Source of the DNA: Eledone cirrhosa
Lineage: Eukaryota
Direction: 5' to 3'
DNA: 64,000 nt
NCBI GenBank assembly: GCA_964016885.1
Contig: OZ024742.1
Span: forward strand, 369,148,001-369,212,000
The translations under genes and the position numbers were made by a program. Positions 3,947-43,704 of this stretch are shown here, one piece after another. Under the pieces are notes generated by a model. That model had not been told where the DNA came from, made no database searches, and saw only the letters and a program-made list of their open reading frames with translations. Each line of letters begins with the position of its first letter. The stretch's first letter is position 1.

Positions 3947-4626
3947 AATCAGGTTGGAATAGTTTAAAAGTGGTTAGACCAACAGTGGTTAGACCAACAG
4001 AGGTTAGACCAACAGTGGTTAGACCAACAGTGGTTAGACCAACAGAGGTTAGACCAACAGAGGTTAGACCAACAGTGGTTAGACCAACAGTGGTTAGACC
4101 AACAGTGGTTAGACCAACAGAGGTTAGACCAACAGAGGTTAGACCAACAGAGGTTAGACCAACAGTGGTTAGACCAACAGTGGTTAGACCAACAGTGGTT
4201 AGACCAACAGTGGTTAGACCAACAGTGGTTAGACCAACAGTGGTTAGACCAACAGTGGTTAGACCAACAGTGGTTAGACCAACAGTGGTTAGACCAACAG
4301 AGGTTAGACCAACAGTGGTTAGACCAACAGTGGTTAGACCAACAGTGGTTAGACCAACAGTGGTTAGACCAACAGTGGTTAGACCAACAGTGGTTAGACC
4401 AACAGTGGTTAGACCAACAGTGGTTAGACCAACAGTGGTTAGACCAACAGTGGTTAGACCAACAGAGTGCTCGGTATATTGGGCAGTAGAGTGGGGTTAT
4501 ATTATGATGTGTTAAGGGACCCGACAGCTGAGCTCTTGCCGTTTCAACACCTAGTTTTAATACATTATAGACTGGTACGTGCTGTTGAAACAGCAATAGC
4601 TCAGCCGTTGGGTCCCGACTCTTATA
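3947..4626 (-). mobile_element. (TA)n-docked fold-back short element with an internal 15-bp array
   Basis: Inverted repeat gggacccgacagctgagct..gtttcaaca / tgttgaaacagc..agctcagccgttgggtccc. Tail ccccactctactgccc..gagcactct matches the 7646/29792 family. (TA)n on both sides. Confidence 0.7.
3969..4467. repeat. 15-bp minisatellite (AG[T/A]GGTTAGACCAAC)n, ~33 copies
   Basis: Near-perfect tandem array with a single T/A variant position. Confidence 0.97.
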
Positions 4627-5830
4627 ATATATATGTATATATATATGTATATATATATATATGTATATATATATATATATGTATATATATATATATATAT
4701 ATGTATATATATATATATGTATATATATATATATATATGTATATATATATATGTATAAATATATGTATTATATATATATGTATATATATATGTATATATA
4801 TATATGTATATATATATATGTATAAATATATGTATTATATATATATGTATATATATATGTGTATATATATATGTATATATATATATGTATATATGTATAT
4901 GTATAAATATATGTATTATATATATATGTATATATATATGTGTATATATATATGTATATATATATATGTATATATATATATGTATATGTATATGTATATA
5001 TATATATGTATATGTATATGTATATATATATATGTATATGTATATATATGTATATATATATGTATATGTATATATATGTATATGTATATATATGTATATA
5101 TATATGTATATGTATATATATGTATATATATATGTATATATATATATGTATATGTGTATGTATATATGTATGTATATATATATGTATGTATATATATATA
5201 TGTATATATGTATGTATGTATATATATGTATGTATGTATATATATATTATATATATATGTATATATATATGTATGTATATATATATTATATATATATTAT
5301 ATAATATATATATATATATTTTTTTTATATATACATGCATACATATATATGTATATTATATATGTATATTATATATATATATATATATATATATATATAT
5401 ATATATATATTATATATGTATATTATATATATATTATATATATATATATATATATATATATATATATATATTATATATGTATATTATATATATATTATAT
5501 ATATATATATATTATATATGTATATATATATATATATATTATATATGTATATTATATATATATTATATATATATATATATTATATATATATATATTATAT
5601 ATATATATATTATATATGTATATTATATATATATTATATATATATTATATATATATATATATATATTATATATATATATATATATAATATATATATACTT
5701 TAATCTGTTATTTTAATAAATATATATATATATATATATATATATATTTTTTTTTTTAAATATATACATGCATATATATATAATATAGTGGATACCTCTG
5801 TGTATATATATATATATATATATATATATA
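4627..5830. repeat. (TA)n/(TATG)n compound microsatellite
   Basis: Low-complexity sequence seen directly. Confidence 0.97.
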
Positions 5831-5989
5831 TGTGTGTGTGTGTGTGTATGTTATGTATGTATGTAAAAGGTAAACAGAAATAATAACACAATCGGTACAG
5901 TATATGGAAGGGATATATTAGGTTAACGCTTGATATAGCAGGAAGAGGGTCTTGTGTGTATATATTTAAAATATATATATATATATATT

Positions 5990-6186
5990 TGTTTAATATA
6001 GAAAGGCTTCTACAGGACTAGAACTGTTTCATTCGTGAGAAATCATCAGTCAGCTTCCTAATGATTGCTCACGAATGAAACAGTTCTAGTCCTGTAGAAG
6101 CTTTTCTATATTAAACATTTATACTCTGCTTTGTATTGAGTACCTTACCTACTGTGGTTAGCCCCGATTGAACCCGGAATAAACTT
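5990..6186 (+). mobile_element. Fold-back element with two inverted HHR cores (Penelope-like pLTR remnant)
   Basis: ~55-bp inverted arms. Minus strand CTGATGA-tttctcacgaat-GAAAC; plus strand CTAATGA-ttgctcacgaat-GAAAC-agttcta-GTC. Tail tactctgctttgtattgagtac; (TA)n flanks. Confidence 0.7.
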
Positions 6187-6202
6187 ATATATATATATAT
6201 AT

Positions 6203-6523
6203 ATGAACATTAATCAGTATACACTGAGGATGAAAAACTCAGAGCTGTATGGGATCCTCCCAAAAGTCAGCTCAAAAGTGACACAGAGGAGACTGAGGTT
6301 AGCTGGACATGCTCACCGACATCCAGAGTTGACATTGCACTCAGTGATCCTGTGGGAGCCCCTACATGGACACACTGGAAGAGGAAGACCAAGGCTAACG
6401 TATGTTGATGCCCTAAGGACAGACATTGGTCTGTTGGGGACGCAGGACATGGCAGCGATAATGAGGGACATAGACCGCTGGAGAGAACTCGTCCATGGAT
6501 CTCGGGAATTTTACCCGCCCTAG
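6203..6523 (+). mobile_element. RTE-clade LINE 3' fragment
   Basis: RRLRLAGHAHRH..GRGRPRLTYVD..DIDRWRE is typical of the RTE C-terminus. Near-identical to 57250-57411. Confidence 0.88.
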
Positions 6524-6976
6524 AATAGAAATAGAAATATATATATATATATATATATATATATTTCTATGAGAGAGAGAGAGAGAGAGAGAGAGAGAGA
6601 GAGAGAGAGAGAGAGAGAGAGAGAGAGAGATTGGCAATTATTTTACCCCGGACATATGACTATGGATATTTACGTATATCAAATACACCCATGCTTACAC
6701 ATCCACTCTTACACAGACACTCACACACATACAAACACTGATAACTGTCATGTAGGTGTATGTAAATGAATCGAACTATTCATCTCGATCTATCTAACTA
6801 TATATTTATCTAGCTATCTGTCTATTTATTTATTTATTTAATATACTACCTGTCTATCTTATTTTTCTCTCTATATATCTCCCTAACTATTTTTGTTTAT
6901 TTTTCTATTCATCTCTCTCTCTATATATATATATATATAATTTTTTTTTTCCTATATATATATATATATATATATA

Positions 6977-40572: not shown

Positions 40573-40576
40573 CCCC

Positions 40577-40930
40577 AGAGGGTCGGACGCCATGCTTTCC
40601 AGCATAGTTACATCCCTTTATGATCTGAGTTCAAATCCCGCCGAGGTTGACTTTGCCTTTCATCCTTACGGGGTCGATAAAATAAAGTACTAGTAATGCA
40701 CTGGGTAATTGCTGGCCTTGTGCCTAAAGTAGAAACAATTAATTATATGGTGGATTGGCAGTATCAGTAGAGGGTCGGACGCCATGCTTTGACGCATAGT
40801 TACGGCCCTTGCCATTCTGAGTTCAAATCCCGCCGAGGTTAACTTTGCCTTTCATTCTTACGGAGTCGATAAAATAAAGTACCAGTAATACACTGGGTAA
40901 TTGCTGGCATTGTGCCAAAAGTAGAAACAA
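40577..40930 (+). mobile_element. Two head-to-tail SINE family A copies
   Basis: Two B-boxes and two gtagaaacaattaattat tails; the first copy is 5'-truncated. Confidence 0.9.
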
Positions 40931-41166
40931 TTAATTATATATATATATATATATATATATATATATATATAATTGATAGTATTCAAGAAACATATATACA
41001 CACACACAAACAAAATATATAAAGATATATATATATATATATATATGTGTATGTATTGAAGTTTCCGTTGAAAATTGAAAAAGTCATAGGAGTGAAGAGT
41101 GCTGTATGTAAGTTACAGAGCTAAATTTAATATCTATATCTATCTATCTATCTCTATATATATATA

Positions 41167-41520
41167 ATGCACGGAACGCAAAACAAGTAGCTTTGTCAGG
41201 CACCAAGTTAACAAATATGCCGCATGCCTGCAGAAAGGAAACACACTTTGCGATGGTGAAAAGATGGAAGCTTGCTTGGCATGGTCATGTATCTCGCCCC
41301 AACTAACTCCTTGTCTAAAACCATCTTTCAAGGCACAGTCGAGGGAATGCGAAGTAGGGGCAGACAAAGTAAATCCTGGTCCGTCAACATGAAAGATAGG
41401 ACTGGTCATAACACCGAGACTCTTCTATGCATGACGGAGAATAGAGACCAGTGGTGAAGGCAGACTGCGAAAGCGTCTCAAGTGGCACTCCAACGACTGG
41501 CTTCACCAGTTGCGGGAGAA
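41167..41520 (+). mobile_element. Decayed RTE-clade 3' fragment
   Basis: SKTIFQGTVEGMRSRGRQSKSW..NRDQW. Confidence 0.8.
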
Positions 41521-41810
41521 CATGATATATAGTATTAAATTAAAAATAGATTGATATATATATATATATATATATATATATATATATATATATATATATA
41601 ATAAACACATCAAACAATTACAGCGGATAATTTGTAAAGAGTGTATACACATAGTCACAGGTAATATATTAAAAATTAACGTGAACCCCGAATATTCGCA
41701 GACATGACATCTTTAATTTAATTTTGGTTATATATACACACATATATATATATATATATATATATATATAAGTTAAGGAATAACCAAAGAGTGCTTATAA
41801 ATACATTATT

Positions 41811-41867
41811 TTATTAGCTAACAGTGTTTCATCCATACCCTATGGCAGGAATCATCAGAGCCTATAA
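41811..41867 (-). ncRNA. Minimal type I hammerhead ribozyme followed by AATAAA and tail
   Basis: Minus strand: gcu CUGAUGA uucc-ugccauaggguau-ggau GAAAC acu GUU^agc uaAUAAA..aagcacucuuugg..(TA)n. Confidence 0.65.
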
Positions 41868-43704
41868 ACAAGAATATATCAAAGGTTGCAGGCTCCATCA
41901 AACTCAGTCACCAGAACAAGGTTAAAGGACCAGTAGGGGGGGTCCCAAGGCCAGCGCTATATAGAAAAACACACAATACATGACGCACATAATGTCATAA
42001 AATATCATAAAAATTGACATCAAAAATGTATCACATAAATGGTGCAACAGATGATAAGGAGGTTGGAAGAGGATAGCAAGAAATGAGTGAGGGTGTTCCT
42101 CAGCATGATCAAAAACAACAAGAAAACAAAGAAACAAAAAAAAAAAAAAAAAAAAAACAAAGCAAAGCAAAGCAAAGCATAGATACATCAATTCACAAGC
42201 AGTGCAAATACAGGATGTACAGGAAGAATATGAGAGCTTGCAAACATGTGTCCGTGGGAAGAATAGTTGGTTAGCGGTGGTGCAGCTTTACATGTAGGAT
42301 TGTATATAGGGAGGATGGTGCATTCCAGTTATATCGCCTTGTAACAGGTCGATTTCTCCATATCATACCAGCACCCTACGAACAACATCCATTGGTTCCA
42401 ATTCCAAGCGTTAGACGATATAATACTGTTTCCAAAACATATACTCAGAGGATTTCTCCGCATAGGCAGTCTGCAACAAACACCTTAAATCTAAAATAAA
42501 GTAAAGTACGATGAGTTGAAGTAAAGTAGGGTATATGTACAGCCGGGACACCAGTGAGGAAATTGAAAATAAGACAGGTCCGCAATAACTGCTCTCACCC
42601 AAAGTCCACACGTTCGGTCACTCAACCCAACGTCCCAAGGGAAATTCACTATATATATATATACACACACACATGAAATATATACACACTTCAACAGCAT
42701 TTAAATAAGTATTGCCTGTACTAGTAATCAAAGTATGTATACATTTTGGGGGACACCCTGTGTATATGTGTGTGTGTATGTGTGTGTCTATGTGTGTGTG
42801 TATGTGTGTGTCTATGTGTGTGTGTCTATGTGTGTGTGTATACACGATCCGCTTCTACAAGGTATGCCTCTCCCAAATTACACAGACTATGTATTGGTCA
42901 AGCTGATGCTGTAGTAGAAGACAGCATACCGAGATGCGGTGCAGTGAAATTAAACAAGGAGTCATATAGTTGCGAAACACACGTTTTAACTATACAGTCA
43001 TGTCTGTATCTATAATTATCAGAAAAATAAATGAACATGTAATACAACTAACCGAGTGTGTTATGTGTATTGTGTGAATGGCATTAGGAGGGAGCATTAT
43101 ATGCATATATATATATATGTATATACATACATACAAGCATACATACATACATACACACATACAAGCATACATACATACATACACACATACAAGTATACAT
43201 ACACACATACAAGCATACATACATACATACACACATACAAGCATACATACATGTTAACGTGTTAATGTTGGGTTGCAGATTTATAGGTACTCGTATAAAA
43301 ATAACATCTGCTGGTGGGATGACTAAATTCATGTAGCATATATATATATATATATATATATATATATATATATATATATATATACATATATATACATATA
43401 TATATATATATATATATATATATATATATACATATATATACATATATATATATATATACATATATATATATATATATACATATATATACATATATATATA
43501 TATATACATATATATACATATATATACATATATATATATATATATATATATATATATATATATACATATATATACATATATATATATATATACATATATA
43601 TACATATATATACATATATATATATATATATATATATATATATATATATACATATATATATATATATATATATATACATATATATATATATATATATATA
43701 TACA

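Follow-up and report, generated by a model that had tools for sequence, protein, structure and literature searches.

Most of the short islands set in TA-rich runs of the window (the whole 64-kb stretch of DNA analysed here) trace back to Penelope-like elements (PLEs) of the Hydra clade, whose RNA carries two bulged hairpins that probably dock a reverse transcriptase (RT)-endonuclease, a predicted dimer, 3' of two internal starts, the islands being truncated two-armed insertions. Sequence matches identify five of the nine as ends of such elements that have lost their 5' part, and it is likely that all nine are 5'-truncated, two-armed Hydra-clade insertions. The pairing of hairpins near both end points is a new observation: no description of a paired start-site hairpin was found in the open-access literature searched. 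PLEs are the sister group of telomerase, and the pairing bears on how their RT chooses its start and why the tail stands at one end only; in the sole in vitro study the PLE binding motif was narrowed no further than a stretch of 172 nt (PMC11167929). The motif named here, of 20-45 nt and with fixed spacing, is a candidate PLE start-site determinant. It can be tested in family A, an intact element that targets (TA)n and has amplified recently, and the hairpin is a simple marker for spotting the ends of Hydra PLEs in unclassified repeats flanked by microsatellites.

Islands of the window and their parent elements

Nine islands, each adjoining (TA)n, are present near the positions listed in the preliminary description (Table 1), which ascribed them to a diversified non-autonomous ribozyme system mobilised by a PLE from outside the window. 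The PLE origin was borne out. For five islands, the matching sequences elsewhere in the genome are ends of Hydra-clade PLEs that code for protein, and a search for PLE open reading frames (ORFs) ending in the island tails recovered ORF-bearing parents for families A, B and C, two of them with intact ORFs of 713-717 aa and one with broken ORFs. The family A parent forms 3,531-bp units in tandem with 717 aa ORFs; the B-type parent (713 aa ORFs, variant tail) was reached by protein search; in family C the ORFs are broken. H1 and H2 are further Hydra parent families in the same genome. A Neptune-type 777 aa family was ruled out as partner, its tail being different. As expected, no PLE ORF was seen within the window when the ORF list was read by eye, and the proposed (TA)n targeting was confirmed with a TA-free query, TA runs lying at most 2 bases away on both sides in 30/30 A loci.

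Table 1. Features of the window; positions count from its first base.
Feature	Position	Strand	Structure	Relatives
A-like insertion	3947..4626	-	arms unlike in outer parts; half hammerhead 4523-4545; hairpin 4467-4492, one mismatch; tail enlarged by 15-bp repeat x33 (3969-4465)	
Family B insertion	5989..6185	+	two arms, hammerhead core on each, 6016-6049(-) intact and 6058-6091(+) one base off; hairpin 6123-6143	88-89% over 133-137 nt to pLTR of intact 713 aa Hydra ORFs
Family A sibling	6977..7180	+	tailed arm from -58 wall (7041); half hammerhead 7059-7081; site 1 7100/7101; hairpin 7109-7134	89% identity over 142 nt to A master
Family E tail-only piece	7231..7299	+	hairpin 7241-7263	
Family F insertion	7316..7577	+	long inverted tail-less arm with hammerhead core 7352-7403(-); very short tailed arm; hairpin 7496-7522	7 related tails detected
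Family A insertion, centre deleted	7646..7808	+	tail hairpin 7737-7762	94-97% identity over 113 nt to ORF-bearing A loci
Family A insertion	29793..29987	-	tail-less inverted arm and tailed arm; half hammerhead 29890-29912; site 1 29873/29872; tail hairpin 29839-29864; site 2 29793	
H2 tail fragment (further Hydra family)	31039..31089	-	absent from the preliminary description	96-97% over 75 nt to H2 loci
Family G tail-only piece	41053..41131	-	hairpin 41099-41121, one base damaged	tail with undamaged hairpin recurs in fold-back island of locus L149
Family C tail-less arm	41771..42649	-	3' UTR end of Hydra PLE; hammerhead core 41820-41858(-); stops at site 1; true length 879 bp	

On its protein motifs, family A would belong to the Hydra clade, whose hallmarks (RWK, DKG changed to DKT, CxCX5C, CxxC/CxH around E and N, and no CCHH) were taken from PMC8557442. 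The A protein has RWR at residue 37 and DKT at 117, and among 107 rows RW[KR] occurs in 103, DK[TS] in 106, the CxCX5C linker in 102, CxxC..E in 106 and N..CxH in 96, while CxxC ahead of the YIG-type motif occurs in none. The YIG-type motif itself, a candidate mark of a C-terminal GIY-YIG endonuclease, lies at residue 606 of A and is found in 98/107 rows; the endonuclease domain gave no Pfam match, and the top homolog (P0001) carries PF01541. The Hydra ORF has no sequence match in Pfam or PDB. The predicted model of the single 717 aa A protein (pLDDT 93) has telomerase RTs (TERTs) as its best fold matches (E 1.5e-8, TM 0.33-0.39).

The hammerhead cores or GAAAC hairpins claimed for several islands are present in seven, as complete, damaged or half structures; neither a whole nor a half core was found in islands 7231 and 41059. 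Three cores are complete and one is damaged at a single base (Table 1), and islands 3947, 6977, 7646 and 29792 retain the 3' half only (GAAAC, stem III and cleavage triplet). An Rfam scan of the window, dominated by microsatellite matches, listed no hammerhead family in the best 150 of 570 matches. The A master is predicted to fold as a three-way hammerhead with a U3:A8 core, at a z of 0.43, so energy alone is not distinctive; putative canonical cores occur in the pLTRs of B, C and H1. The region upstream of the A arm was also searched for a canonical core (CTGANGA); most of the 20 matches are junction variants arising by chance or belong to arms from other families.

It is quite improbable that the islands derive from small non-autonomous masters of their own, as short ribozyme elements moved in trans by a PLE recognising their shared tail. 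Short copies of A are indeed far commoner than those with an ORF (34,776 arm matches vs 325 junctions, with at least 17,000 short insertions), tandem arrays of short units that bear both hairpins but lack a full ORF occur (L264, L233, L250), four islands (3947, 7231, 7314 and 41059) have no parent among 23 long loci, and non-autonomous PLE derivatives are described in PMC8557442 and bioRxiv 10.64898/2026.07.22.740005. Against this, the A, B and C ends run on into ORFs, none of these three families having a source unit without one, and dispersed copies lack hairpin 2 and thus, under the docking model, would be unable to make tailed copies. Moreover, the palindrome centre differs between copies, and therefore each island is made afresh at insertion and is not a copy of a short master. 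The non-autonomous system of the preliminary description is thus replaced, for five of nine islands, by 5'-truncated ends of ORF-bearing PLEs.

A bulged hairpin near both end points

What the tails share is a hairpin with a bulge (RCTC...GAGY), in which compensatory changes occur. The claim that all islands share it held in part: a strict descriptor matches six of nine (5989, 6977, 7231, 7314, 7646 and 29792), islands 3947 and 41059 carry copies that fail it by one mismatch each, and 41771-41870 has no tail hairpin by this descriptor because it is a tail-less arm. The motif nevertheless exceeds chance, with 11 descriptor matches in the window, where 20 shuffles averaged 2.95 and never exceeded 9, and 21 in 200 kb chosen blind against 7.0 (max 14). 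Its common layout, noted earlier as a sequence tag, reads better as hairpin structure, and the supposedly looser motif of 7314-7580 is actually among the cleanest hairpins. When tail clusters were delimited purely by their fold-back geometry, 10 of the 26 had the hairpin at their start (null mean 0.16, max 3 in 1,000), and the 16 failing the strict test include some damaged copies or non-elements.

In full-length elements the hairpin occurs in two copies, 5-9 nt past each copy end point, the spacing at site 1/site 2 being 8/6 in A, 6/9 in B, 7/7 in C and 5/6 in H2 (7 at site 1 of H1). The second hairpin of family A was forecast ahead of the search, which returned 325 genome matches against 0 in the control, with an identical junction in 99 of the best 100 listed; that of family C, likewise forecast, was found in 4/6 matches. 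It is also present in two more families, in one metagenome relative with 37% protein identity and in Hydra-1_Ajap (PMC8557442 supplement), and among six published Hydra consensus sequences the hairpin is clear in three and not clear in two. Family B departs from this pattern, its second hairpin having a 4-bp stem and lacking the bulge; a first pattern search for this hairpin gave 0 matches and a second gave 233 mixed matches vs 49 in the control. TA-rich bases follow the site in 8/9 counted sites.

Covariation was scored in 30 hairpins chosen by eye and phylogenetically non-independent. The outer pair is G-C in 14 and A-T in 13, the fifth pair T-A in 18 and C-G in 9, and neither value was matched by any of 20,000 permutations. 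It is very unlikely that the motif acts in DNA, as the tail sequence recognised by the endonuclease or as a promoter, and not as an RNA docking hairpin. Such a role would agree with the D. virilis endonuclease, which requires tail DNA for cleavage (noted in PMC11167929), and with three stem positions that are almost invariant, so that the signal is partly sequence; however, the sixth pair is a sense-strand G-T wobble in 10/30, the loop varies from ~4 to 30 nt, the reverse strand never passes the hairpin test and hairpin 2 lies outside the inserted copy. Isolated hairpins fold weakly (z -0.7 to -2.7); the B hairpin is predicted to fold differently, and the two hairpins of the A master may cross-pair.

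Two-armed insertions and a model of priming

As proposed earlier for the inverted ends, the typical island consists of two head-to-head arms within (TA)n. In 27/27 close arm pairs one arm is tailed and the other tail-less, the latter stopping at site 1 and the former running through the tail to site 2. Palindrome centres contain variable filler and templated inserts. The islands are short, palindromic, present in high copy and targeted to TA, as miniature DNA transposons (MITEs) or Helitron-type elements might be, but the chance of such an origin is practically negligible: the A, B and C islands are ends of RT-coding elements, and the inverted repeats are non-terminal with variable centres, one arm bearing an unpaired tail.

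Under the preferred docking model, the RT-endonuclease would bind both hairpins, just 3' of the internal start sites, and cut both (TA)n strands; each DNA end would prime at one site, aided by the UA-rich bases after it, and both cDNAs would extend toward the RNA 5' end and then be joined by end-joining. With end-wise priming at two sites, the tail would be the stretch from site 1 to site 2. The two end points fit, by analogy, the two internal RT starts published for another PLE.

It is quite unlikely that the inverted arm arises instead by fold-back self-priming of one cDNA or from an antisense template, with the hairpins as cleavage or resolution points. In its favour, though likewise in that of the docking model, the arms of a pair usually share subfamily marks (16/17 vs 6.4 expected), and self-priming is proposed for head-to-head palindromes of rotifer PLEs in PMC3846280. 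It is at odds, however, with the filler and inserts at the centres, with highly unequal arms (L189 and window 7316-7577), with jumps on either arm, with insertions joining arms of two families (1/90 unselected islands; also L115 and L117) and with the extension of both target strands from two starts in vitro (PMC11167929). The rule of one tailed and one tail-less arm points to two primers.

Most family A arms (45/63) start at -62 to -51, with 4 further upstream, and loose ends in public contigs cluster at the same three places. From this 5' wall, single or repeated jumps lead into the ORF; three full-length A copies cross it without a scar, and no wall was found in H1, H2 or C. Inr-like words are common, and the cap-G signature count is 18 G/71. 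An arm asymmetry at the cleavage triplet, considered as editing, disappeared in an unbiased listing and reflected ranking bias. In A and B only, the RNA may have a fixed 5' end, possibly a transcription start, ~58 and ~69 nt before site 1, so that most products would be short run-offs, hence the uniform island size; some cDNAs would jump from it onto another RNA end and continue. A wider reading is offered tentatively, as somewhat less probable than its negation: (i) the twice-repeated hairpin, kept in the Hydra PLEs of four or more animal lineages, would be the protein-binding element setting both starts, (ii) PLEs would start copying their own mRNA close to its 5' end, each target strand yielding run-off cDNAs of strong-stop-like kind, and (iii) full length would be reached only via a jump to the hammerhead-cut 3' end across a short terminal redundancy (-58 to -21 in A). 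If this is true, tens of thousands of short islands are failed jumps.

Comparison with known systems

The families described here resemble the C-terminal endonuclease-bearing (EN+) PLEs of the Hydra clade (PMC8557442) in RW[KR], DKT, CxCX5C, CxxC..E..N..CxH and lack of CCHH, as well as in the pLTR hammerhead, (TA)n targets, inverted 5' copy and tail at one end. They are new families and differ in their units of at least 3.5 kb and tails of 55-110 nt (30-40 in PMC8557442, whose main text mentions neither "hairpin" nor "stem-loop"); Hydra-1_Obim differs, by eye, in protein and 3' end, and the U3:A8 core and abundant short insertions set family A apart from described Hydra elements. Non-LTR retrozymes and minimal PLE hammerheads (PMC4209133; bioRxiv 10.64898/2026.07.22.740005) share type I hammerheads, a palindromic loop III, the U3:A8 variant and close opposite-strand pairs read as truncated PLEs. 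Retrozymes, however, are head-to-tail tandems of short non-coding units with complete ribozymes, whereas the islands are single and head-to-head, with a half core in family A, and the tandem masters are coding units of 3.5 kb. Rotifer Penelope junctions (PMC3846280) likewise have head-to-head pLTRs that contain an Inr-like word, with an optional tail; they were explained by an antisense template on which self-priming takes place, whereas the one-tailed rule here points to two primers. The Anolis element Poseidon PAc (PMC11167929) shares two internal RT starts that bound the tail, cutting and extension of both strands, an AT-rich target, a requirement for RNA 3' of the starts and a predicted dimer. 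It belongs to another clade, its binding motif was left undefined and its starts are reported not to be homologous to the target, whereas here TA-rich bases follow 8/9 of the counted sites.

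TA-docked islands and their parent elements

All nine short islands that the preliminary description had placed beside TA runs were present and adjoined (TA)n, which is abundant in the E. cirrhosa genome (3.0 Gb in 1,796 contigs). The tail proposed as common to them was recovered in part: a strict descriptor of a bulged RCTC...GAGY hairpin matched 6 of the 9 islands, with one-mismatch copies in two more, but none in 41771-41870. This descriptor gave 11 matches in the window versus a block-shuffle mean of 2.95 (maximum 9, n = 20 shuffles), and 21 versus 7.0 (maximum 14) in 200 kb taken blind.

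Three islands represent large families, namely A (query 29793-29987), B (5989-6186) and C (41771-41900), with 1,676, 2,651 and 1,581 first-look genome candidates, respectively, of which 40 per family were scored. A 34-place pattern of one A arm had 17,338 + 17,438 exact matches (control 0), and therefore there are at least about 17,000 A insertions. In the best 30 A loci the outer ends were constant and TA flanked both sides; the palindrome centre varied between copies, and filler was frequent.

ORF-bearing parents were found for several families. A TA-flanked family C element (L111) consists of an inverted tail-less arm, a truncated and broken RT-endonuclease ORF, a 2.2 kb UTR, a hammerhead and a tail. 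In L206 (family H1; 735 aa ORF from ATG) the tail hairpin occurs twice, once after each copy end point (sites 1 and 2, which bound the tail). A further hairpin just past the A tail was predicted before searching; the search yielded 325 matches (control 0), and of 100 listed matches 99 had the same junction. Some of these loci are tandem arrays built from units of 3,531-3,543 bp, each with a 717 aa ORF, which is open in 4/4 units of one array and in 4 of another. The corresponding search in family C gave 6 matches, and in 4 of them a second hairpin came ahead of a broken ORF of Hydra type. Two pattern searches for a second hairpin in family B failed; a B-type parent (713 aa ORFs; 88-89% identity to the window B island across 133-137 nt) was recovered by protein search with a metagenome relative as the query, as was an additional family with two hairpins, H2. 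The second B hairpin is atypical (4-bp stem, one pair swapped, bulge absent).

Islands 7646, 29792 and 6977 (89%) were assigned to A, 5989 to B and 41771 to C, and these five are almost certainly ends of Hydra-clade Penelope-like elements (PLEs). Islands 3947, 7231, 7314 and 41059 share this anatomy, and no parent for them was present among 23 long loci.

The A ORF had 2,049 homologs among 8,000 candidates scored, mostly at about 40% identity. Five locus proteins and 102 of 120 listed homologs were aligned (107 rows). Judged by motif, the alignment agrees with the Hydra-clade marks in section 11 of PMC8557442: RW[KR] (103/107), DK[TS] (106/107), CxCX5C (102/107), CxxC..E (106/107), N..CxH (96/107) and the absence of a CCHH-type CxxC ahead of YIG (0/107). 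Sequence searches of Pfam and PDB with the Hydra ORF gave no match; the best matches of a predicted A ORF structure (pLDDT 93) were telomerase RTs. The elements are new families within an already known kind.

Other features are listed below. A young Neptune-type PLE family (L134, L144, L148; 22,554 first-look candidates, many 777-codon open frames) has a 36-nt tail and a hammerhead resembling the U3:A8 form; both end points in L144 are followed by a short word beginning with ACCT, which hints at the same twice-repeated logic with a different motif.

Other repeats in the window and genome
Feature	Location	Strand	Basis
Recurrent 212-bp TA-docked island	window 17115-17326		
TA-docked tail-like piece, resembling family D	window 29677-29748		
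TA-docked stub of H2 site-1 end	window 5698-5719		
LINE-type RT open frames, at least 3 kinds, unrelated to islands	window 25084-27975, 20041-21116, 43337-45496, 45860-48301		by eye
SINE-like ~190-bp repeat, several copies, some inverted/tandem	window 3200-3550, 30871-31040, 40577-40940		
40-bp G-rich satellite, continuing past window end	window 57892-64000		
Two extra hammerhead-core-like matches	window 30543, 32222	-	core scan
Fold-back island of another family, tail without RCTC...GAGY hairpin; related pieces at numerous loci; may be the end of a non-Hydra PLE	window 10954-11289		
Family with 38-nt tail, nearly all hairpin, 1-nt bulge	L164:8423-8602, L016:1335-1356		
~450-bp hammerhead repeats, retrozyme-like, fused to family A tailed arm	L044 (G000:C4:376099081-376102136)		

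A paired hairpin at both copy end points

The main finding is that the hairpin occurs as a pair, each copy a fixed distance from its end point, and that this arrangement is conserved across distant animals. With a copy end counted where master (full-length source) sequence meets a TA run, ends at sites 1 and 2 lay 8 and 6 nt before the hairpin in A (25 and 76 of 102), 6 and 9 nt in B (2 and 8 of 12), 7 and 7 nt in C (12 and 6 of 19) and 5 and 6 nt in H2 (18 and 20 of 43); the H1 count covers site 1 only (7 nt, 5/7). Both hairpins are upstream of the ATG in a metagenome contig (L267, 37% protein identity), and two others (L268/L269) stop just ahead of the second. PMC8557442 File S7 gives six Hydra consensus sequences. 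On inspection by eye, two hairpins were seen in Hydra-1_Ajap, one each in Hydra-2_Ajap and Hydra-2_Amil and a variant in Hydra-1_Crog; no clear hairpin was seen in Hydra-1_Obim or Hydra-1_Amil.

When tails were defined solely by fold-back geometry, 10 of 26 clusters had the hairpin within the first 22 nt (null 0.16, maximum 3, n = 1,000), and their reverse strand gave 0. In a non-independent set of 30, hand-picked by eye from clusters, related tails and masters and biased to good hairpins, G-C and A-T accounted for 14 and 13 of the outer pairs, T-A and C-G for 18 and 9 of the first inner pairs, and the 2-nt 3' bulge began with T in 28; at pairs 1, 5 and 7, the numbers of Watson-Crick matches in this set were reached by 0/20,000 permutations. 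Three points count against the hairpin: its predicted folding energy is modest, in B a different minimum is predicted, and the two A hairpins can pair with each other.

A docking role for the hairpins is probable. The pair is apparently undescribed in the searchable literature, and it makes PLE start-site choice directly testable by experiment.

In L264 (G000:C1:27009448-27010174), L233 and L250, head-to-tail units of 170-257 bp keep both hairpins and have lost the ORF; they may be the origin of truly non-autonomous copies, or circular-RNA traces.

Arm starts, proposed template jumps and paired arms

Among 63 A arms (10 from loci first chosen via a canonical CTGANGA core search upstream of the arm), 45 started at -62 to -51 of site 1, 4 further up and 14 lower. 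Because most start at this wall, A arms retain only the 3' half of the hammerhead core. In the A master the core folds as the U3:A8 variant, a form already known (PMC4209133). Loose ends at the A wall, site 1 and site 2 also occur in contigs of four public runs from one study, in which depth is not copy number. The B wall lies near -69, and no wall was found in H1, H2 or C.

In L311, L314 and L264 an arm meets the wall, resumes in another unit at +900, +299 or +195 (twice) and stops again at the wall; similar joins occur in further loci. From the wall and these joins we infer that a fixed RNA 5' end, possibly a transcription start, would set the wall, and that cDNAs would jump from it onto another template. 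The A wall has a YYANWYY context, the transcription-start (Inr-like) consensus; words of that type are common. No cap-derived G was demonstrated at the A wall (18 G of 71). L320-L322 cross it without a scar, which needs read-through RNA, an exact jump or a circle (the last proposed in PMC4209133). The run-off and jump model is tentative, somewhat doubtful, and weaker than the hairpin result.

Among the first 100 A arms listed (50 tailed, reaching site 2, and 50 tail-less, ending at site 1), all 27 divergent pairs at most 200 bp apart comprised one arm of each type. Three subfamily marks were common to both arms in 16/17 pairs (expected 6.4), which suggests a single RNA source for both; subfamilies active at different times would fit equally well. 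Two-family chimeras were rare, at 1 of 90 two-armed islands, with L115 and L117 as further cases from a selected set. In the system of PMC11167929 the tail is bounded by two internal starts, cleavage and extension take place on both target strands, the reaction requires RNA lying 3' of the starts but not hammerhead cleavage, and a dimer is predicted. The rule of one tailed and one tail-less arm observed here agrees with that two-start mechanism.
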